Position numbers and translations under genes: made by a program. From positions 18,704 to 82,703 of the IMG/VR virus record IMGVR_UViG_3300032216_001981: a DNA stretch of 64,000 nucleotides. The stretch is one strand, 5' to 3'. Positions 29,073 through 48,956 of the stretch are shown here, piece after piece. Origin of the DNA: a virus (lineage: Duplodnaviria; Caudoviricetes). A model generated the notes under the pieces. That model saw only the letters and a program-made list of their open reading frames with translations. It did not search any database and was not told the DNA's origin. Within the stretch, counting starts at the first letter, position 1; the number at the start of each line of letters is the position of its first letter.

Positions 29073-30515
29073 TTAATCCGTTTTGGCTTTTAACCCAGCC
29101 AACATGCTTTTGAGTCTACTGCTGTCCACTGTGGCTGAGGGTGGTGGACCAGCATCCTTGTCAATGCTAAATCCCGACTTGGCTTTAACATCAAATTGAT
29201 TAACTGTGGTGGTGGTTTTGATTTGATCCATGATTGAGGCCATTCTAGGTGGTCCGCCGCCACCTGTGTAACTTTCTTGTCCTTCTTCTCCCGGATCAGT
29301 GATACGCATGGTTTCTATGTTGTATTCTAAATCAATTTTATGTCCAACACCGGTTGAGCTACGCGACTTCATACACTGAATTTGATAACGCCCACGCTCT
29401 CGCATGGCTCGGCTGGTAAAGATACCAAACACGTTATCAGCAGTGTTGATCTTTGAAATACCTCCTGCAATGTGACTGTGGTCAAACTCTATTTCTTCCA
29501 CTGCACTTCTATTCAACTGACTTGCTGTCACAAACAACACATTGAGTTCTTTGGCTAGATTACGCAGTTCTTCCGCCACATACTTGTCTTTGATGAACTG
29601 GTCATTGGGATTCACCTTGACCGATACCGGCATCACCAAGTCCAAGTAGTCGCACATGACAAAGTCCACTTTATTACCGGTTTGTATTTGATACTCTTTG
29701 ATGAAACTGCGAATGTCATTCACTGTGCTCTGTGCTGGCAGGGCTTTGATTCTATAGGCTCCGGCTTTTTTGCCCACCATCTTGACCTTGAGTGTAGTGG
29801 TGTCTATGTCCTTGCGTATGTCTTTTGTACCTGTGCTGGTCAACATGGCATCGGTTCTCAAAGCACACAGTTCTTCTGACAGTTCCAAACTGATGTACAC
29901 ACCTGATAAGCCGGCCTGCAACCACGACAGTGCTATGTTCATCATGACCAAGCTCTTGCCCGAACCCGAACCTCCAGCAAATATGTTTAGTTCACCTCTG
30001 CTCATGCCACCATAGAGAATCTTGTCCATGGTGGGCCATCCGGTTGACACTTGTCCGCCCGAGTTGTAATACCTATCAATACGTGACTTGGGATCTGAAA
30101 AGTAGTCTGTGCCCAAGTCTTTGGTTAAACTTATTTGCACTGCATCTTTGATCAATTTCTCCACAGGATCGTAGTCGCCCTTTTCCAACAGGTCTGCTGA
30201 TTTTAAAATGGCACGTTCCAGTTCCATCCTGCGTGTAAAACCTTCAAATTCCATCATGAACCAGTCGTGATGTCCCGCCACTGTGTCAGGTAAGGGTTTT
30301 AATTCCACTCCGGTCACTGCGTGAATCTGTTCAAGTGTGGGCAATGTTTTATAATCGTTTGAGTGTGTTCTAACGAACTCGGCCACAGCACGTAGGCTTC
30401 GATCAAAGTTTTCAGGGTTATAAATGTTTTGTACTCTGACGTAACTCTGTGCATCGGTCAACATCATTTCCAAAAACAATCGTTGTATCTCGGGGCTGTA
30501 TTCTTTTGTTGTCAT
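29073..30515 (-). CDS. Replicative DnaB-like helicase (T4 gp41-like)
   Basis: AGGSGSGKS Walker A, SLELSE, CDYLD, TASQLNR, KSRSS. Confidence 0.93.
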   Translation of the reverse strand: MTTKEYSPEIQRLFLEMMLTDAQSYVRVQNIYNPENFDRSLRAVAEFVRTHSNDYKTLPTLEQIHAVTGVELKPLPDTVAGHHDWFMMEFEGFTRRMELERAILKSADLLEKGDYDPVEKLIKDAVQISLTKDLGTDYFSDPKSRIDRYYNSGGQVSTGWPTMDKILYGGMSRGELNIFAGGSGSGKSLVMMNIALSWLQAGLSGVYISLELSEELCALRTDAMLTSTGTKDIRKDIDTTTLKVKMVGKKAGAYRIKALPAQSTVNDIRSFIKEYQIQTGNKVDFVMCDYLDLVMPVSVKVNPNDQFIKDKYVAEELRNLAKELNVLFVTASQLNRSAVEEIEFDHSHIAGGISKINTADNVFGIFTSRAMRERGRYQIQCMKSRSSTGVGHKIDLEYNIETMRITDPGEEGQESYTGGGGPPRMASIMDQIKTTTTVNQFDVKAKSGFSIDKDAGPPPSATVDSSRLKSMLAGLKAKTD

Positions 30516-30519
30516 ATTG

Positions 30520-31551
30520 TTAATTATATAATCTTTTCTTTAGTAATTCAATTTTTAATCTACTGGTTTGTTTGCCTGCTAATATTGATTTCAATGCAAA
30601 TAACTTGCCATACTGTTGTACTGCTGCACCAACATCTTTACATTCGCGTTGCCATTCGGGATAGCTCACTGCCCATCCATACTCCAATGCAGCATCAACC
30701 AAGCGTGAGCCTGCACGGTCAGCATCCGGAACTACTATAACTTCACGTGCCAAGCTGTCAATGATGTCGGCCTGTTGCTCACTGACTTCATTGCCCAACA
30801 CTGCCACACCATCAATGGCCATGGCATCAAACGGTCCTTCACACACTATGACAAACTTACTCCCAGCCTGCTGTTGATCTACATTGAACACATAGCCGGG
30901 TTCATGACTGTTGTGGTATTTGGGTCGAACATCATCTGATACTGCACGGGCAGTATAGCCAATGATCTCGTTTTGCCAAGTGAACGGGATTACGACCCGA
31001 CGATGTAGGTTGTTGTGTGTAGCCGGAGTCCACATTAAATTGTATTTAATCAAGTCAATCCGTCTACTGGCACTGTACATCACAGCCGCATGAAACTCCT
31101 TTGGCACCGCAGAATCTTTCAGTGTGTACCACGATTCCCAGGCTGTGAAGTTCTGTGCCGATTCTGGCAAAGGTCTTGGCTTAAAGTTGATGGGTTCTGC
31201 CGATTCCACCTTCACCAGTTGTTCGGGTGCTGTCAATTCTCTAATACGTATGGCATCAATCACCAAGCGTTTTACAGTATTTTCATCAGCACCCAACCAA
31301 GTTAATAATTTTCTAAACTTGTAAGTTAAATGCCGGCCGGGTTGGTAAGATGCTCGAAAATTGCAGTTAAAACAGGAATATGATACAGCACCATCGGGAT
31401 TGACAATGACTCCGCCACGACCTCTAGTGTCGGCACTTTCACCCGAATGTGGGCAACAAACAGCATTGAATGACGTCCACCCAGTGGTGGCATTGGTTCT
31501 ACGTCGAGCGGGCAACAACTGAGTTAGGGCGAGTACAATAGAATTTGACAT
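30520..31551 (-). CDS. DNA primase (T4 gp61-like)
   Basis: Zn ribbon CCPH...CFNC, TOPRIM VCEGPFDA and PDADRAG. Confidence 0.92.
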   Translation of the reverse strand: MSNSIVLALTQLLPARRRTNATTGWTSFNAVCCPHSGESADTRGRGGVIVNPDGAVSYSCFNCNFRASYQPGRHLTYKFRKLLTWLGADENTVKRLVIDAIRIRELTAPEQLVKVESAEPINFKPRPLPESAQNFTAWESWYTLKDSAVPKEFHAAVMYSASRRIDLIKYNLMWTPATHNNLHRRVVIPFTWQNEIIGYTARAVSDDVRPKYHNSHEPGYVFNVDQQQAGSKFVIVCEGPFDAMAIDGVAVLGNEVSEQQADIIDSLAREVIVVPDADRAGSRLVDAALEYGWAVSYPEWQRECKDVGAAVQQYGKLFALKSILAGKQTSRLKIELLKKRLYN

Positions 31552-34084: not shown

Positions 34085-37000
34085 TTATGCTATTAAACTT
34101 TGGGCTAGAATGATGCGTTGTATGTCAGTTGCTGTTTGACTGACACCGAATGGTACTGTGAATTGACTGGTTACCGAAGCATTTCCAGCTGAAATGTTAC
34201 CGGTGTATGTGGGTAAAAACTGTGCAACTTGAGTGTTGCCATAACTGCCAGCACCCACTGTTGATAAAATATTAACGCCGTTGGCAAATAGGTAGTTGGG
34301 TGCAACCACATTGCCCGACACAGTGGCATTACCTGTAGCGGCGTTTAATGTTAGTAATGTGGCGTCAAAGTAAGTGTTTCGTGTTCCGTAAATGGCCAAG
34401 TTGTTGACATCAACGGCTGCTATCTTGTACAGTGTATTACTGGCACCCAAATAAGTGAGCACCACAGGGCCATCACTTTGAATGGAAGGTGCTGCAAATA
34501 CGCCACCGGAGCTGAGTGTAGCAACATATGATCCAGTGTTCAACTGCGATAGAGTTTTGTTTGTTATAGATGTTTGTATGCCGGTTATGGTTGAATCTGT
34601 TGGCAAATATGCTGCTACATTGGTGTTGCTGTAAGTTCCTGGCTGTGGATTGGCTGTCAAGTAGCTGGCAACATTGCTGTTACCGTAACTGCCGCCGGCA
34701 GTTAAGTAAGTTAAATTGGCGTAGGTGTAAAAACTGCCCAAGTTGGCATTGATACTGGTGACATTGCTTTGTAAGTTGCCCAACCAAACGTTCTGTCCAG
34801 CCTGTGTTAGGTTGGCGTAAACATAATAAGATCCAATGTTGGCATTGGTTGATTGTATTTGACCAGCTTGAGCAGCAGCATTGGCATTGGCATAGATGTA
34901 GTATGAACCAAGGTTGGCATTGATACTGGTGACATTGCTTTGTAAGTTAGATAACCAGATGTTGGTGGCTATGTAATAACTGCCCACATTGGCCGACAAT
35001 GCAGATATAGTGGCATTGGCAGCATTGATATTGTTGTTGGAGTAGGTGTTGGCCGAAATGATCTTGAGATCTAAATTGGTCAGTGTGGTTTCTTGATTTC
35101 GTGCATTGGCAGTCCAAGCAGTAGTGACAGCATTGATTGAGGTATTGACTGTAACAATGTTGTTGTCTACATAATTTTTCATGCCAATGTTGGCATTGAC
35201 AGTGGCGTTCAATGAGTTTTGTACATTGGCTGCCATGGCAGTGTTTAAATCATTGACATAACCAACCACCGCGGTGTTGGCTGTGACAATTTGATTTGCT
35301 AAACTGCTTACATTGGCAAATAAGTCAAGTCCCTGTACCACAACTGTGTTGGCCACTGTGACTGTGCCAGAGACTCCAACGCCACCGGCCACTGTTAATG
35401 CACCCGAGGTACTACTGTTGCTGATGTTGGTAGAAGTGATACGAACTATGTTGCTTGAGGTAATTCGCATCACTTCGTTGTTGGCGTTACCGCCACCAAC
35501 AACAAATAAAATATCGTTGGCTGTTTGTGTGTTTATAATTAAGTTACCGCCACCGGTCACAGCATTACCAAACACGTTGATATAAGCGTCGTTTGGGCGG
35601 GCAATGGCATAGCCTGGATAATTGTACGTGCTACTGCCTATACCAATATCGATAAAAGTATCGCTGGCATTACCGTTGTCGGCTGTTATAATAAGATCGC
35701 TGGATGCCCGTGCGCCAGAATTAATATTTTGCATATTAATTCCACCGTAATCATTGTAATTTGTAGACACTTGAACTGCAATCTGTGGCTGAACATTGTA
35801 GCCAGTGGAGATTCCAGCATACAAGGCACCAAATCCGTTAGTATCACCAAAGAACTGCCCCGAATTTCCTGTAACTGTTTGATTAGTTACATTACCAATA
35901 AAATTAATATTTCCGGTTACTGTTAAGTTGCCTGATATTGATACATCACCGGCTGCGGTCAATGTGTTGAGTACACCAAGTTGATTGATATTGGGTTGAT
36001 TGGCTGTGGTTATAGTACCCGCAATCAATCCGGTGTAACTAGGCAGGTATGCTGCTACATTGGCGTTGGAATATCTAGCAGCAGTGACCGAAGCCAATAT
36101 AACATTACTGTAGGATAATTCTTTGGTAACAGTGTTGTACACCACCATTATAGTGTTGCCAGCGTCGTAGTAGTTTCTTACAGGATTTACAAAAAATCCA
36201 GATACATTTGCACTAAGTCCTGTTGCATTGGCATTTAATATAATACTGTTGGCAACTTGTGTGGTTGGTCCATTGCTGCCGCCAATTGAAATGGCATTGT
36301 TGCCTTGGCTGGTATAGCCGGTGTTCTGTCCAATTGCAATTGAGTTAGTGCCTTGGTTATTGGTACCAGAATTGTAACCTATGGCAATGGAATATCCACT
36401 TTGATTGATTTGTCCAGAGAAAGTGCCAATGGCCAAATCATAACTGCCCTGTGATGGAGTAAATCCCGGTCCTGCACCTCCGGCATAGTAGCCCCAGGCC
36501 AAAGAACCGTCGGGGGTATCATAAAAACTCGATCCTGAAGGCAGTGTCAGTACACCTGTGGGATTGAAATTCCACAATGCACTACTGGCCCCGATCTGTG
36601 CTGACGTGCCATCAACTCCAACAAAGTTAGCACCGCTGGTGTTGGCCACCCAGGCTTGATCTCCCACTAGAGTAATTATATTTGGCAAGGCCCCAACACC
36701 GGGATAGCCGGGCTGTAGTTGTGTACCATTGGAAAGATTTACATTACCGGAACTGGCTAATACAAGATTTCCACTGCCATTGATTAAACTGTTAAACGAA
36801 AGTGGTGCACCGTTGGCATACAAATAACTGTTGCTTCGCACATTGCCGGCTCGGACTGTAGCAGTGGTTAAGATATTGCTGGTGACATTACCGCTGGCAA
36901 GATACACAGCTACTTGTGTGTTACCGTACGTGCCACCACCTCCACCACCGCTGATTAAATGCCCACCCGGTGTAACACCGTCGTGAATACGAATACTGTT

Positions 37001-37111
37001 TAAATCAGTATCCATCGTTGGTTCGCCCAAGGGACCTGTATAGGCTAAACTACGGGCAGTGGTACCGCGTTTAAGCAGTACTTGGGTTACTTGTACATTG
37101 GCAACAGTCAT
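34085..37111 (-). CDS. Long tail fibre-like protein with Mtd-N-like N-terminus
   Basis: QVLLKRGTT...SIRIHDGVTPGG; YadA-like SIAIG repeats; five Y(G/S)NxxVAx(Y/F)L modules; Asn/Ala coiled coil. Confidence 0.75.
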   Translation of the reverse strand: MTVANVQVTQVLLKRGTTARSLAYTGPLGEPTMDTDLNSIRIHDGVTPGGHLISGGGGGGTYGNTQVAVYLASGNVTSNILTTATVRAGNVRSNSYLYANGAPLSFNSLINGSGNLVLASSGNVNLSNGTQLQPGYPGVGALPNIITLVGDQAWVANTSGANFVGVDGTSAQIGASSALWNFNPTGVLTLPSGSSFYDTPDGSLAWGYYAGGAGPGFTPSQGSYDLAIGTFSGQINQSGYSIAIGYNSGTNNQGTNSIAIGQNTGYTSQGNNAISIGGSNGPTTQVANSIILNANATGLSANVSGFFVNPVRNYYDAGNTIMVVYNTVTKELSYSNVILASVTAARYSNANVAAYLPSYTGLIAGTITTANQPNINQLGVLNTLTAAGDVSISGNLTVTGNINFIGNVTNQTVTGNSGQFFGDTNGFGALYAGISTGYNVQPQIAVQVSTNYNDYGGINMQNINSGARASSDLIITADNGNASDTFIDIGIGSSTYNYPGYAIARPNDAYINVFGNAVTGGGNLIINTQTANDILFVVGGGNANNEVMRITSSNIVRITSTNISNSSTSGALTVAGGVGVSGTVTVANTVVVQGLDLFANVSSLANQIVTANTAVVGYVNDLNTAMAANVQNSLNATVNANIGMKNYVDNNIVTVNTSINAVTTAWTANARNQETTLTNLDLKIISANTYSNNNINAANATISALSANVGSYYIATNIWLSNLQSNVTSINANLGSYYIYANANAAAQAGQIQSTNANIGSYYVYANLTQAGQNVWLGNLQSNVTSINANLGSFYTYANLTYLTAGGSYGNSNVASYLTANPQPGTYSNTNVAAYLPTDSTITGIQTSITNKTLSQLNTGSYVATLSSGGVFAAPSIQSDGPVVLTYLGASNTLYKIAAVDVNNLAIYGTRNTYFDATLLTLNAATGNATVSGNVVAPNYLFANGVNILSTVGAGSYGNTQVAQFLPTYTGNISAGNASVTSQFTVPFGVSQTATDIQRIILAQSLIA
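34742..34948. repeat. Exact 36-bp duplication, 171-bp period, in the fibre gene
   Basis: gttggcattgatactggtgacattgctttgtaagtt at 34742-34777 and 34913-34948. Confidence 0.9.
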
Positions 37112-37605: not shown

Positions 37606-37640
37606 TCATGATTGCCTTTATAACATATTTAGCGAGAAAC

Positions 37641-38012
37641 GTGGAAGAAATTAAACAACTACTAGATCAGTACCCTTATCTTACCCTACTGACATATGGT
37701 GGCGTTGAATATGTGGGCATTGTGCAAAACAGTGATGAACAAATCACTACAATTTATGATTTTTCCGCATTAAAAACCACAGAACAAAAAGTAAAATTCC
37801 TTGAGCTGGGCGATGTTTGGTGGTGGGAAAGCAATAGAATCATTCCCATTAATGTGTTTTTGAAACAGGATTGGGTGGAGTTTAAGGCAGTGGTTAAAAC
37901 CATGAACAGCAAAGATGTTGTGATACAGATAGGACCACAAGTAAGTCTCAAGGAAATGAGTCAACGTCGCAGTAAAAGACGATCAATTACTCTAGTTAGA
38001 CGTGTTGGTTAA
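37641..38012 (+). CDS. Hypothetical protein
   Basis: Probable GTG start (MEEIKQLL; the ATG at 37608 is an alternative); WWWESNRIIPIN. Confidence 0.7.
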   Translation: MEEIKQLLDQYPYLTLLTYGGVEYVGIVQNSDEQITTIYDFSALKTTEQKVKFLELGDVWWWESNRIIPINVFLKQDWVEFKAVVKTMNSKDVVIQIGPQVSLKEMSQRRSKRRSITLVRRVG

Positions 38013-38573
38013 TAAATTTATATGGACTGCTACTAGATGACTGTAGGCCACAGAATGACTACGTTTGAATGTATAGCCTTCTTCAGTTGCGTCCCAAATA
38101 GTCTCTGCAACTTCCCGCCAAGTTTTTCCAAGTAAATGTCGTTTGCCCGGACGTATCAAGGCCAAGAACATGGCCATACGTGGTATTGAATCAACTGCTT
38201 CGGGCATTTTAATCAGTGTTTCGTAATGGTTACCAATGTGTATCAGTTGACTACAAAATTCAGGATCGTACAATCTACTCCAGTCGGGCTCTTGCGCCAT
38301 CAACTGTTCTAAGTGAGCTTCGTCCTTTATCTGTGTATATAATGACACATTGAGAAAGTCCAGTTTCATATACCCCAGTTCTTCTGCAGATTTGTAATCT
38401 ATACTAGCAGTGCCGGTAAAGGGATCAATAGGAATTGCGGTTGTATAAACACCGGTGTTGTGTCGTGTCAACACCCCATCACGTACAATACCTGCAGGGT
38501 GATGATCCAGCACTGCTAGTGCCCGAGTGCGATCGGGAAAATCTATGTCAATGTCTGAACGAAATTTTATCAT
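37992..38573 (-). CDS. dnaE: Minimal DNA polymerase III alpha (DnaE) catalytic core
   Basis: SDIDIDF, HNTGVY, GYMKLDFLNV, ALIRPG, YTFKRSHSVAY; start via TAATG overlap; about 193 aa. Confidence 0.85.
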   Translation of the reverse strand: MIKFRSDIDIDFPDRTRALAVLDHHPAGIVRDGVLTRHNTGVYTTAIPIDPFTGTASIDYKSAEELGYMKLDFLNVSLYTQIKDEAHLEQLMAQEPDWSRLYDPEFCSQLIHIGNHYETLIKMPEAVDSIPRMAMFLALIRPGKRHLLGKTWREVAETIWDATEEGYTFKRSHSVAYSHLVAVHINLLTNTSN

Positions 38574-38818
38574 TAAATAAACCCCTGTGGCCATTTTAAT
38601 AGTAAAAATGTTTCCATACCCTCAAAGTCTTTTTCTTGCTCACCAAAAAAGCGTAGGTGGAATTCATCGTCTCGAGTCATAAAGTACCAATCGTAATCAC
38701 GCTCTCTAACAAGCCCGTATTCGTCTTTCAGCCACTGGCTTAATTTGAGTGCTCCACGCAAGGTAAATCTTGAAGTAGCTTCACCTGAATTATTGATTTT
38801 AAGTTTAATAAGTCTCAT
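38573..38818 (-). CDS. Hypothetical protein
   Basis: 81-aa ORF in the operon. Confidence 0.55.
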   Translation of the reverse strand: MRLIKLKINNSGEATSRFTLRGALKLSQWLKDEYGLVRERDYDWYFMTRDDEFHLRFFGEQEKDFEGMETFLLLKWPQGFI

Positions 38819-39479
38819 TCAAGTAATTCTCTAAAAGATAATTGGCAAAGTCCTCATGTGCTGGTTCTGCGTGATGTCCATCATATTGATAACGATTATA
38901 ATCATAAGGAATATGATTTTTATCTATAGAGCAATATTTTGAAAAACTAAAATCAAATAAATCCACTATATTGGAATCGGATTGTATTTTTTCGTAAAAT
39001 TGTTTTATAAACGGAGTTGAAAAATCAACTGCTTTCATGTTTTTAGTACCCATCCATATGAGATATTTAATATTGTTTAAATTTAAAAAAGATGTAAACA
39101 TCGCCAATTGAAATAGTAAATTGGTTGTTGCAGCTTCATCATCATATAATCTATTATATGCATCACTAAATTTTTTAGCATCTCCTGTTAAACAATTATT
39201 TGGCTGAATGTCTTTAAAATGGCCATCATTGCCGATAGCCTCATTTGACCAATACTCGGTCCTGTTGGGGTGAGCTAGACCAAATATAGCCAGTATGTTG
39301 TTATTTTGCTTTTTTAATTCTAGTAAATCTCTTACACTGCGTCGCAGTATTCTGTTATTGCAACTTCCCGGTAACCCGTTATTAACAACTTTGCAATTCA
39401 GTTGTTGCCCAATAAAATCTGTATAGGTTTTTCCTGTACTCAGTACTCCATAACTATCACTGTTTGCATATAAAATCAT
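38805..39479 (-). CDS. SGNH-like hydrolase or acyltransferase
   Basis: ANSDSYG, PGSCNNRI, DGHHAE; ATGA overlap start. Confidence 0.6.
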   Translation of the reverse strand: MILYANSDSYGVLSTGKTYTDFIGQQLNCKVVNNGLPGSCNNRILRRSVRDLLELKKQNNNILAIFGLAHPNRTEYWSNEAIGNDGHFKDIQPNNCLTGDAKKFSDAYNRLYDDEAATTNLLFQLAMFTSFLNLNNIKYLIWMGTKNMKAVDFSTPFIKQFYEKIQSDSNIVDLFDFSFSKYCSIDKNHIPYDYNRYQYDGHHAEPAHEDFANYLLENYLNETY

Positions 39480-40171
39480 AGGCCCGCCTTGGCCAATATG
39501 TCTCGTACCCACTCGACATCGGCCAAGTATTCTCGAAATTTACGTTGCCACGAGTCGGGATCGATCATGGGCAAGATCATACCTATCTGTTCTTCAGTGA
39601 GGCTGTCAAGAAATTCCACACCCGTTGCACAATTAAACACCACCCAAGGACTAATCCTACCGGTGCTAATATGGAAACAAATCCTATTACTGTTGCCATA
39701 ACGAAAATAGTCCCCAAAACCTCCCTTGAGATCTGTATTGTTTTCTGCATATGATTCCATTTCTCGTAATGCTCGTTCCAATGCGTCTGATACTGCTTCG
39801 CGTTTGACATAGTCCGGCAACCATTCTGCGTATAAACCATCACTGCACCAATTGTCTAATTTTTTATTATTTTTTAACAACCAATCTAAATAGTTGACAA
39901 AGTTAATGCAACGTATGTCTTGGCAATATCTACCAAACTTGACAAAGGCATTGTAGTAGGGACTGGCAACAAAATCTGCATAACTTTTTAGACGTGCTGA
40001 TCCCTGTGTGGTTTCATAAAAACGCAAGTATGCTCGGAGTCCCAGTTGTACTCCAGTTTCTCGTTCCTGTTGCCAACGACGCTTGGGCTCACACAAGTGA
40101 ACACCGAGTGTACTGAGTTTCAAGAAACTTTTATCACAGTACTTACAGGTATTCTTTGATTCGTCGGTCAT
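39476..40171 (-). CDS. Hypothetical protein with N-terminal Zn finger
   Basis: CKYCDKSF...HLC; lies within the replication gene block. Confidence 0.7.
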   Translation of the reverse strand: MTDESKNTCKYCDKSFLKLSTLGVHLCEPKRRWQQERETGVQLGLRAYLRFYETTQGSARLKSYADFVASPYYNAFVKFGRYCQDIRCINFVNYLDWLLKNNKKLDNWCSDGLYAEWLPDYVKREAVSDALERALREMESYAENNTDLKGGFGDYFRYGNSNRICFHISTGRISPWVVFNCATGVEFLDSLTEEQIGMILPMIDPDSWQRKFREYLADVEWVRDILAKAGL

Positions 40172-40616
40172 CCCATCCTTGAGATTTTAAATGTTGTCTG
40201 AGATCATCCCGTGTGTTTATTTCCGCTAACAATTTTATCTCATCATCTCGGGCATGGGGATACAGTTCACGCAGTAGTTTTTCTACTTTGTTGTTGCTAG
40301 TGTCTTTTTTCTTGGGAGAGATCCACTGGTGAAACTGCCGTCCCATGCCGGGACTCACAGTGGTGGCCAATAACCACTGTAGTTTTTTATGCTGTGTGGA
40401 GTTGACGTCAAAGAAGTTGCGATTCAGTCGTTCGTTGCAACTGATCAAGTAGTAGGCTTCAAGATCCGCGGTGCCCTTCACAGTGGCGCCATAGCGTATC
40501 ATTAGGAACGGTGAAAACTTTTTACGTTCTTCTTCTGTGAGATCATCATAGAAGTCACGGTTCTTTGAATCAAACTGTGCCATTTCATTTGCGATTGATA
40601 ATTTATCTGTTGTCAT
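40143..40616 (-). CDS. Clamp-loader small subunit-like (T4 gp62-like)
   Basis: KKFSPFLMIRY, NERLN, LQWLL pattern recalled from gp62-like proteins. Confidence 0.55.
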   Translation of the reverse strand: MTTDKLSIANEMAQFDSKNRDFYDDLTEEERKKFSPFLMIRYGATVKGTADLEAYYLISCNERLNRNFFDVNSTQHKKLQWLLATTVSPGMGRQFHQWISPKKKDTSNNKVEKLLRELYPHARDDEIKLLAEINTRDDLRQHLKSQGWDDRRIKEYL

Positions 40617-41343: not shown

Positions 41344-42128
41344 TTAAGTTCTCTGTTGTAGTGATTGTAATATAAATCTCGACTGGACTGCAACCAAATT
41401 GAATATATCTCAGTTACATACTTTAGATCCACAGCTATGTCTAACTGAGCTATTATGTCAAGAATTACTTCCTCGCCGGAGTTTTTAAAAAGATCCTCGG
41501 CACAGTAGGTCAAAACCCGACGATTTTTTTTCAATAAAAAATCTTTGGTTGTCAAAAGCCTGTTGTGCATGTCACGATTGTGTGTGTAGGCTTGATCGTG
41601 ACGATGTTTTTGAGTATTATTTTGATCAAATTGATTCAAGGAATAGTTTTTGCTTGCGTATACATCGGTGACGTGATCTATGTCGTTGGCTAGTATAAAA
41701 ATGTGAGTGCATTCTTGCAAGGTCCACGGACTTGCTTGTTCAGTTAGTCTTCCGCTGTCAACGCCAGAACGATCCCAACGGAGTAAATTTTGATCAAACA
41801 ATACAGAATTAATTTCATCCGAACCACCGTGTAATAGGTACACCGAGCGAGCAAAGGGATCCCAATAGCAAATAGCATGGTTCGCATAAAATCTATTTAC
41901 ATGTTTGGTTCGTATACTCCATTCTCTGTTGAGCCAAGTTTCTGATGTCACTGGTTGGAGATAGTAGGCCTTTAAAAATTCATAACGAGCCGCGGCATTC
42001 CAACAATCCTTATCAAATTCACTGTCATCGTAAAAATTAAACGCAGTATCTAGACTAATGAGATTTGCTATTAAATTTCCACCGGCACCCATTGGAAAAT
42101 AAATTATGATATTAGGGATTACTGCCAC
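41340..42128 (-). CDS. Hypothetical protein (weak sulfotransferase-like N-terminus)
   Basis: IYFPMGAGGNLIANLI. Confidence 0.5.
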   Translation of the reverse strand: MAVIPNIIIYFPMGAGGNLIANLISLDTAFNFYDDSEFDKDCWNAAARYEFLKAYYLQPVTSETWLNREWSIRTKHVNRFYANHAICYWDPFARSVYLLHGGSDEINSVLFDQNLLRWDRSGVDSGRLTEQASPWTLQECTHIFILANDIDHVTDVYASKNYSLNQFDQNNTQKHRHDQAYTHNRDMHNRLLTTKDFLLKKNRRVLTYCAEDLFKNSGEEVILDIIAQLDIAVDLKYVTEIYSIWLQSSRDLYYNHYNRELK

Positions 42129-43579
42129 TCTGCTTTCTCTACGGTAAAAGGGTAATTTGCTTCTCGATAAAACTGCTTGCGTTTTGTTAAATGTCTTTTT
42201 GCGAATTTACAGGTGCTGGTGATGTCCCAGATTTGCACGTGGTCTTTGTCTTCGGCTTTTCTAATGCCACGCCCGATGCTTTGTATGACTCGAACAAAAC
42301 TTTTGCCTGGCTCAAGCAGTACAAGATTAAATATCCTAGGGATATTAATACCCACAGCAGCAACACCATAGGTAGCAATGATAATTTTATCACTACTGAC
42401 GGCAACTTCATCGTATTCATCTTTTCTCTCCTGAGCCTTGGTTGATCCCGATACAAACACAGCACGTTCGCCCAAACGTTCCAACAACAGCTTTCCTGTG
42501 GCAATTCTATCCACTAGGATAAGTGTATTGCCAGTTTCGTTTACACTGTTTATCAACTGTGCTAGATAGTCCAGTCTACCTGTTGTTTCGGTCAAGTATT
42601 TAAGCTCGCTTTGGTAGTTGGTGTATTCAACGTGATCCACCAACTGTACTATGTTTACATGACAGCTGGCCAAGTGTCCGGCTTCCTGTAATTCATTTGC
42701 TGATAGTCGACCCACCACCGAACCTAGACTGCAAAAGATACTGGTTCGTTCATATTCTTCTCGAGGTATTGTTCCTGTCAGTCCCCAACGTATGGGCACA
42801 TGAGCAAATGCTCCTGTGAGTAGAGTCTTTAGTGCATCGGCCTTGGCCATGTGTACTTCATCCACCATGACTAATACCACATCTTCAATAAACTCACCAA
42901 TGGAGACCTCGGCCTCTGCTGACTTGGTGTTCTTTAATAGTATGTTTAGACTTTGCCAAGTGCAAATGGTGTGTGTACGGCCAAACTCTTTCCTATCGCC
43001 AAAGTATACTCCCACATCCAAGCCCAAGTTACGGTAGTCGGCTTCGGTCTGTGTCACTAGGCTTTTGTTGGGCACTATGACGATGGACCTACCATATGCT
43101 TCTACACTTTTGCTCAAGGCCGCTGTCATGATGGTTTTGCCAGCACCAGTGGCTATTTCTTGTACACTCTGCGGATTCTTTAAAAAATTATTGATGATTT
43201 CCACTTGGTAGTCACGGAACACTATGGATTCCCCAGCCCGAGGGTGTCCCGCGGGCCACGTTTGATCACTGAAACTATCTTCTCGAAATTCTGCAAACTC
43301 AAACTGTGTGCGGTAGTCACGAACATCCTCCAGCTCAACATCGTATCCTTGGGATTCCAATATGGGCAGTATGTCGGGCAATAAGTTTACATAACTGGTG
43401 CCACTGAGTTGAAAGAAGGCAACTTTACCATCCCAGCGTCCCAGTCGCACTGCGGGTTGATATCTGGCACCGGGTATTTCAAACTTGAATCTATCCACTA
43501 GCTTTTTACGTGTGGCCAAATCCAAGCCTTCGATCTTGATATTGACTTCGTCACGTATTACAAGTTTACAAGTTGTCAA
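42119..43579 (-). CDS. Superfamily II helicase, UvsW-like
   Basis: ATGAGKT, DEVH, GLTGT, QSIGRGIR; TTG start overlapping the upstream stop. Confidence 0.9.
   Translation of the reverse strand: MTTCKLVIRDEVNIKIEGLDLATRKKLVDRFKFEIPGARYQPAVRLGRWDGKVAFFQLSGTSYVNLLPDILPILESQGYDVELEDVRDYRTQFEFAEFREDSFSDQTWPAGHPRAGESIVFRDYQVEIINNFLKNPQSVQEIATGAGKTIMTAALSKSVEAYGRSIVIVPNKSLVTQTEADYRNLGLDVGVYFGDRKEFGRTHTICTWQSLNILLKNTKSAEAEVSIGEFIEDVVLVMVDEVHMAKADALKTLLTGAFAHVPIRWGLTGTIPREEYERTSIFCSLGSVVGRLSANELQEAGHLASCHVNIVQLVDHVEYTNYQSELKYLTETTGRLDYLAQLINSVNETGNTLILVDRIATGKLLLERLGERAVFVSGSTKAQERKDEYDEVAVSSDKIIIATYGVAAVGINIPRIFNLVLLEPGKSFVRVIQSIGRGIRKAEDKDHVQIWDITSTCKFAKRHLTKRKQFYREANYPFTVEKAEWQ

Positions 43580-47031: not shown

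Positions 47032-48956
<1,925 letters not shown>

Follow-up and report, generated by a model that had tools for sequence, protein, structure and literature searches.

The window considered here, a stretch of 64,000 nucleotides taken from a tailed-phage record of IMG/VR, raises the question of how a protein of 193 residues that carries the three catalytic aspartates of the α subunit of DNA polymerase III (Pol III α) could work: as a complete polymerase in miniature, as one chain of an enzyme encoded by several genes, or not at all. The original prediction, made from the sequence of the window, proposed a minimal or multi-gene C-family polymerase whose other parts are supplied in trans, either by neighbouring genes or by genes outside the window. 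The analysis described below indicates that the ORF is very probably the C-terminal half (C-unit) of a two-gene minimal Pol III α of the group 2.2 jumbo phages (Rak2/121Q/PA5oct/Atu_ph07-type), and that it would act together with an N-terminal half (N-unit) as a second polymerase.

Coding sequence and motifs

The coordinates of the ORF, of its motifs and of the surrounding genes are collected in Table 1. The ORF is read from the minus strand, a point on which the original prediction is silent, and the DIDID, KLDFL, HxxG, RPG and FxxSHxxAY motifs that had been read in it are all present. The overlapping start and stop are likewise borne out: the ATG (38573-38571) overlaps the stop codon (TAA) of the upstream ORF by a single base (TAATG), and at the other end the final 21 nt are shared with a convergent ORF. 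An alternative in-frame ATG at 38594 would give a reading of 200 residues; since the 80 related genes begin with MKF(K/R)SDIDIDF, position 38573 is the likely start.

Table 1. Position of the C-unit gene, its motifs and the neighbouring genes in the window
Feature	Position	Strand	Remarks
C-unit CDS of split minimal Pol III alpha-like enzyme, 193 aa	37992..38573	-	PHROG 11778
DIDID	38541..38555	-	D7 and D9 invariant, D11 at least 90% conserved; first two catalytic carboxylates
KLD	38358..38366	-	K70 and D72 invariant; third catalytic Asp
H38..G41 motif			H38 and G41 each at least 90% conserved
RPG, fingers	38145..38153	-	R141-P142 invariant
FKRSHSVAY finger motif	38043..38069	-	H173 at least 90% conserved; aligns with E. 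coli H760 (FNKSHSAAYA)
Convergent 134-aa gene	37608..38012	+	PHROG 11637; 21-nt overlap with the C-unit 3' end
81-aa ORF, variable insert	38573..38818	-	homologue in 6/82 related loci; no family match (Pfam, PHROGs)
DUF6071 protein, second variable insert	38805..39512	-	Pfam PF19547 at 6.5e-7
Zinc-finger protein, 231 aa	39476..40171	-	N-terminal C2HC/C2H2-like finger; PHROG 11058
Conserved 157-aa protein	40143..40616	-	upstream of the zinc-finger gene
UvsW-type helicase	42119..43579	-	head of the conserved block
Primase	30520..31551	-	downstream in the conserved block
DnaB-like helicase	29073..30515	-	downstream in the conserved block

Conservation and selection

The protein matches PHROG 11778 ('DNA polymerase') over its full length (5.9e-60; residues 10-197 of the protein align with positions 4-193 of the 197-position profile), and it gives only faint local matches to the large DnaE-type PHROGs 405, 11165 and 12219. 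A megablast search with 20 kb of the window found no match among cultured phages. At the protein level, tblastn recovers C-unit homologues with 41-48% identity in 96 cultured phage records, all of them jumbo phages of the Rak2/121Q/PBECO4, PA5oct, Phosso, Atu_ph07 and XacN1 kind. In the metagenomic protein collection, the C-unit forms 4016 clusters, all of about 190-207 residues, and an exhaustive HMMER scan yields 384 representatives at 50% identity. A word-based search for longer homologues returned none, a weak result given that the HMMER scan did find a fusion protein of 375 residues, which is described below.

Across 82 diverse homologues (30-58% identity), the columns D7, D9, K70, D72, R141 and P142 are invariant, and D11, H38, G41, K170 and H173 are conserved in at least 90%; the motifs are therefore not chance matches. 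The related IMG/VR loci carry an intact ORF of 187-200 residues in 80 of 80 cases, and all of these align in a single block. The median pairwise Nei-Gojobori omega is 0.095 (38 pairs, only those with 0.05 < dS < 1.5 being used), and the window gene compared with its nearest relative gives 0.18. Evidently, the C-unit gene is under strong purifying selection, and the frameshifts or neutral drift that would have spoken against a working protein did not turn up.

Likeness to the bacterial Pol III α subunit

The relationship to the cellular enzymes is distant. Pfam has no match for the C-unit at E values up to 0.1, a single-sequence phmmer search of the PDB returns nothing relevant, and the NCBIfam model TIGR00594, with a cut-off of 434 bits, gives a score of 16.3. 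When the family profile is compared with the PDB, Pol III α chains alone match, the best being that of E. coli (2HNH, E 3.9e-6), and hhalign agrees (E 9e-6). Two segments account for the alignment: profile positions 54-139 with E. coli residues 539-641 (VKFDFLG ... ALFRPG), and positions 150-179 with residues 739-769 (FNKSHSAAYA). In the α subunit of E. coli K-12, DFDVD corresponds to D401/D403/D405, KFD to K553/D555, RPG to 639-641, KSH to 758-760 and GRGS to 361-364. The equivalent residues in the phage protein are D7/D9/D11 for D401/D403/D405, K70/D72 for K553/D555, R141-P142(-G) for R639-P640(-G641), and H173 for H760.

The predicted structure points in the same direction. The AF2 model of the C-unit has a pLDDT of 96.2 and a pTM of 0.88, and the first 13 Foldseek matches in the PDB are all Pol III α, DnaE1 or PolC (probability up to 0.98, with weak E-values); in the viral structure library the top matches are only phage DnaE-type polymerases. 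With VIA-align, residues 1-193 of the model superpose on residues 458-837 of the T. aquaticus α subunit (3E0D; Z 9.7, rmsd 3.8 Å, 187 aligned) and on about 397-780 of the E. coli subunit (2HNH; Z 8.6, 183-187 residues aligned). M. tuberculosis DnaE1 and PolC also align, the range for the C family being Z 6.4-9.7, and the next unrelated fold follows at Z 3.6.

The comparison also reveals how much has been lost, as ~385 residues of the E. coli subunit are represented by ~190 in the C-unit. One gap, of ~90 residues, lies between the DxD strand (E. coli D405) and E. coli residue 539, and corresponds to what we take, from the domain limits of Lamers et al. 2006, to be the thumb. The other, of ~87 residues, lies between RPG and FNKSH, where the E. 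coli finger segment 642-738 is gone. The regions of the E. coli protein before residue 397 and beyond about 780 have no counterpart. The model thus aligns only to E. coli 397-780, in agreement with the claim that the PHP, clamp-binding and OB domains are absent, and that the thumb has been lost for the most part and the fingers to some extent.

Cellular DnaE, DnaE1 and PolC (PDB 2HNH, 3E0D, 5LEW, 9QPC) share with the C-unit the palm and inner-finger fold and the DxD, K-x-D, RPG and KSH motifs. The phage protein differs from them in falling below the Pfam and NCBIfam cut-offs, in having a palm that is split over two polypeptides, and in lacking PHP, thumb, outer fingers, β-clamp motif, (HhH)2, OB and tau-binding parts. 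Other phage-borne, shortened members of the C family exist, represented by PHROGs 11165 and 12219 (weak sequence matches to the C-unit, 1.9e-8 and 2e-3) and by such BFVD models as those of Lactobacillus phage Satyr and Staphylococcus phage 6ec, which rank highest among the structural matches of the C-unit in the viral library. Those polymerases, however, are single chains of ~540-830 residues, three to four times longer, and keep more of the fingers and the thumb, whereas the C-unit family is smaller and split.

The other half of the palm

All nucleotidyltransferases of the Pol-β type need the strand and helix of the GS motif, which bind the triphosphate. Both the AF2 model and the comparison with E. 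coli reveal that this element is missing from the C-unit: the first element of the model is the DxD strand (E8-12), and the protein starts 6 residues ahead of that strand. When the relatives' genomes were searched with PF07733, those of Phosso, Paride, G001 (356,865 bp; CheckV 100%), G002 (CheckV 98%) and G003 each proved to contain a single additional small ORF that exceeds the curated cut-off. The encoded N-unit proteins have 169-177 residues (~174) and end in ...VWG(V/L)GRGSS.ASY.L.L.G.H....Y.L...EFL(K/N). The E. coli counterpart of this ending, GPGRGSGAGS...FERFLN, stops seven residues short of D401, and according to the DnaE models of NCBIfam, residues 92-173 of the N-unit correspond to DnaE ~313-394. 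From these two placements it follows that the units adjoin exactly in the loop that precedes the DxD strand, the break falling between E. coli residues ~393 and ~400.

The two families travel together. That of the N-unit comprises 4644 clusters, many of them annotated by JGI as 'DNA polymerase III alpha subunit', and occurs in 110 phage records with the same spectrum of genera as the C-unit; the numbers of N and C records per genus are 34/34 for Escherichia, 8/8 for Salmonella, 8/8 for Erwinia, 4/4 for Xanthomonas and 4/4 for Yersinia. Every complete relative that was checked has an N-unit. The distance between the two genes varies widely, from 44 kb in Paride to 116 kb in G001 and 224 kb in Phosso. 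In Ralstonia phage RsoM2USA (MG752970.1, 133294-138585), the N-unit (g216) and the C-unit (g210) are co-directional and 4.2 kb apart, and genes for a 157-aa protein and a zinc-finger protein lie between them. Judging by coordinates, the arrangement in XacN1 resembles this one.

The closest association is that of P0184 (locus L105:1066-2193, +), a metagenomic protein of 375 residues encoded on a 2.4-kb contig, which translates cleanly and fuses the N- and C-units; it is the sole fusion of this kind among the top 150 representatives. Its fold, predicted with an alignment of the N half only, has a pLDDT of 52.6, with the C half below 50, and the packing of the two halves is unreadable from it.

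In the 82.7-kb contig to which the window belongs, no N-unit was found with PF07733, PHROG 405, a protein query or a GRGSS-type DNA pattern. The record is a fragment that covers ~15% of the genome according to CheckV, so this absence is uninformative for the phage as a whole. The N-unit gene of this phage would have to lie outside the contig, and its pairing with the C-unit is predicted from the relatives. The idea of a multi-gene C-family polymerase with a partner outside the window is in this way upheld, the partner being the GRGS-bearing N-unit of ~174 residues found in the complete relatives.

The proposal that further parts are supplied in trans holds for the GS half and for nothing else that was sought. 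Neither the contig nor the whole genomes of four relatives contain a stand-alone PHP or HHH_6 domain or a further DNA_pol3_finger domain (PF02811, PF14579, PF17657), and in the relatives the only trace of a finger domain lies inside the C-unit itself; the missing DnaE domains are therefore simply absent. These complete or near-complete relatives (G001, G002, Phosso and Paride) all encode in addition a family B polymerase of 825-1013 residues, which was not found on the present fragment of ~15% of a genome.

Genomic neighbourhood

When the window is compared with 80 metagenomic loci and with Phosso and Paride (82 loci in total), the common gene order is orf376 - UvsW - ... - orf167 - (orf77) - 157-aa - zinc-finger - (variable insert) - C-unit - convergent 134-aa - orf164 - ... 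- primase - DnaB. The convergent arrangement of the 134-aa gene with the C-unit is kept in all 82 loci examined. The succession of 157-aa, zinc-finger and C-unit genes is kept in RsoM2USA as well and persists down to 23-36% identity. Wherever a related locus has enough flanking sequence, the zinc-finger gene stands upstream of the C-unit, and 91 of the same jumbo-phage records contain its product. Primase, DnaB and UvsW helicase and the zinc-finger protein are thus the neighbours that had been described, with the exception of the 'gp62-like' subunit at 40143-40616: this label has no support in Pfam, PHROGs, NCBIfam or the PDB profile search, and T4 gp62 is not among the matches.

The zinc-finger protein has four invariant residues in its finger (C9, C12, H25 and C27) and a conserved C-terminal region of ~200 residues, for which no relatives were detected beyond this phage clade. 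Against PDB profiles, only generic C2H2 fingers match it, and only over the finger region; the 157-aa protein finds nothing in the same search. A search of the ESM Atlas with the neighbour proteins returned only unnamed viral clusters. Both proteins were considered as missing parts of DnaE and rejected, given that hhalign against the full E. coli DnaE assigns a probability of 0.1%. The suggestion that the zinc-finger gene supplies a missing part of the polymerase thus fails on similarity, and what remains is a conserved neighbour. The other candidate, the 81-aa ORF adjoining the C-unit, is a variable insert with few homologues among the related loci and does not qualify as a partner.

The site between the zinc-finger gene and the C-unit (38573-39512) is empty or occupied by other inserts in the relatives, and the DUF6071 gene occurs in four related loci at differing positions; small accessory genes appear to be inserted preferentially at this site. 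Two further genes of the region deserve mention. The minus strand encodes at 34085-37111, within the replication block and between orf164 and the primase gene, a fibre-like protein of 1008 residues that is rich in Asn, Ser and Thr and contains repeated NLQSNVTSINANLGS(Y/F)Y units; its relatives are 35-79% identical and variable in position. A phage GroEL-type chaperonin (PHROG 5725, 1.3e-181) is encoded on the same strand at 47032-48651.

Proposed mechanism and alternative explanations

In cellular DnaE, the RPG and KSH elements of the fingers line the pocket of the incoming nucleotide and the template. In the two-gene enzyme, the C-unit would supply the metal-binding strand with D7 and D9, the K70/D72 pair and a reduced finger module (RPG, FKRSH), and the N-unit the other half of the Pol-β-type palm. 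The two chains are expected to complete the palm sheet and to form one nucleotidyltransferase of ~367 residues, which would extend DNA by two-metal nucleotidyl transfer. Having neither a thumb nor a clamp- or duplex-binding domain, such an enzyme is probably distributive or reliant on other replisome proteins. Alongside a family B replicase, it would probably serve in repair, gap filling, or the synthesis of one strand or of primers.

Two readings would make a partner unnecessary, and neither of them is easily reconciled with the data. The 193-aa protein could be a self-sufficient miniature polymerase, which is what the word 'minimal' in the original prediction would imply: its three catalytic aspartates lie in one polypeptide, and it folds confidently alone in silico. 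The fold, however, has the DxD strand as its first element and is without the GS half of the palm, which is encoded by another gene that co-occurs with it and is fused to it in P0184, so that a stand-alone enzyme is very improbable. Even harder to believe is that a bacterial dnaE was captured and has since been decaying. Such a gene could be expected to have the observed length, about one sixth of that of DnaE, and to fail the curated DnaE models, but it would not be found free of frameshifts at 187-200 residues in all of the 80 loci, with an omega of ~0.1, nor in thousands of clusters with invariant catalytic residues.

More serious are the readings that accept the two halves and dispute what they do or whether they suffice. 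Templated synthesis, and processive synthesis above all, cannot be taken for granted in a protein devoid of thumb, most of the fingers and the DNA- and clamp-binding C-terminus. Together, the two units might instead be an active nucleotidyltransferase that does not copy a template, such as a terminal transferase or end-tailing enzyme, an enzyme that makes or extends primers, or the maker of a nucleotide product. The fold of the Pol-β-type enzymes supports many chemistries other than polymerization; thumb, (HhH)2, OB and clamp-binding motif are all absent, and phages of this kind, as seen in the relatives, already have a family B replicase. Nevertheless, the invariants that have been retained are specific to Pol III α (the equivalent of K553, RPG, and FxKSH with the equivalent of H760) rather than generic to nucleotidyltransferases, only C-family polymerases match the structure above background, and the gene sits in a conserved replication block that extends from UvsW to primase and DnaB, all of which makes this reading rather improbable.

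A requirement for more than two subunits is also unlikely, if less so. In this weaker form of the in-window candidacy put forward by the original prediction, the zinc-finger protein, and perhaps the 157-aa protein, would be obligate partners that replace the thumb and the DNA-binding domains, and the order of the three genes, kept in the 80 metagenomic loci, Phosso, Paride and RsoM2USA, speaks for it, as do the position of both genes between the N- and C-units in RsoM2USA, the occurrence of the zinc-finger protein in 91 of the same phage records and its C2H2-like finger, of a kind that often binds nucleic acids. Yet synteny within a phage replication module is weak evidence of physical association, variable inserts often part these genes, as in the present phage, and neither protein resembles a part of DnaE or any family of known function. 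The stricter version, in which the mini Pol III is a module of three or four proteins and the zinc-finger and 157-aa proteins stand in for the thumb and the DNA- and clamp-binding domains, is marginally less probable again; if true, it would constitute an undescribed multi-subunit architecture of C-family polymerases. The two-gene enzyme of N- and C-units therefore remains the preferred explanation.

Relation to the described system and significance

The notion of a C-family polymerase made from several genes is not itself new. A split minimal Pol III α, located in genomes that also encode a family B polymerase and devoid of the other Pol III domains, was described in group 2.2 jumbo phages (Iyer et al. 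2021, Viruses 13:63, PMC7824862). The present gene agrees with it in family, size, catalytic residues and replication-module context, and probably also in the kind of phage, and nothing essential differs; it is a further environmental member of the family described in 2021. The N-unit is not on the present contig; relatives such as Phosso and Paride carry both an N-unit and a family B polymerase. The C-unit is 41-48% identical to the members from cultured phages, and in this phage it is separated from the zinc-finger gene by two variable genes. The same authors called the two split Pol III genes 'distantly located' (PMC7824862), in contrast with the 4.2 kb that separate them in RsoM2USA and with the metagenomic protein in which they are fused. 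Genome papers label such genes merely 'DnaE', and full-text literature searches found no biochemical or structural study of the split mini Pol III. PA5oct has been reported to carry modified G (PMC12191111); a link between the polymerase and DNA hypermodification was considered and dropped, as nothing connects the two.

The present gene adds one environmental member to the family, and the new data confirm the pattern to which it belongs through purifying selection, a natural fusion, one lineage with neighbouring genes and a conserved zinc-finger neighbour. They also indicate, from the genomes of the relatives, that PHP, OB and HhH parts are not supplied in trans. No relative of the bacterial replicase is known that is smaller than the split mini Pol III, whose two chains add up to ~367 residues, and Iyer et al. 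(2021, PMC7824862) proposed that it models the ancestral enzyme of the C family. Given that it occurs in thousands of jumbo-phage lineages beside a family B replicase, these phages may use two unrelated polymerases.
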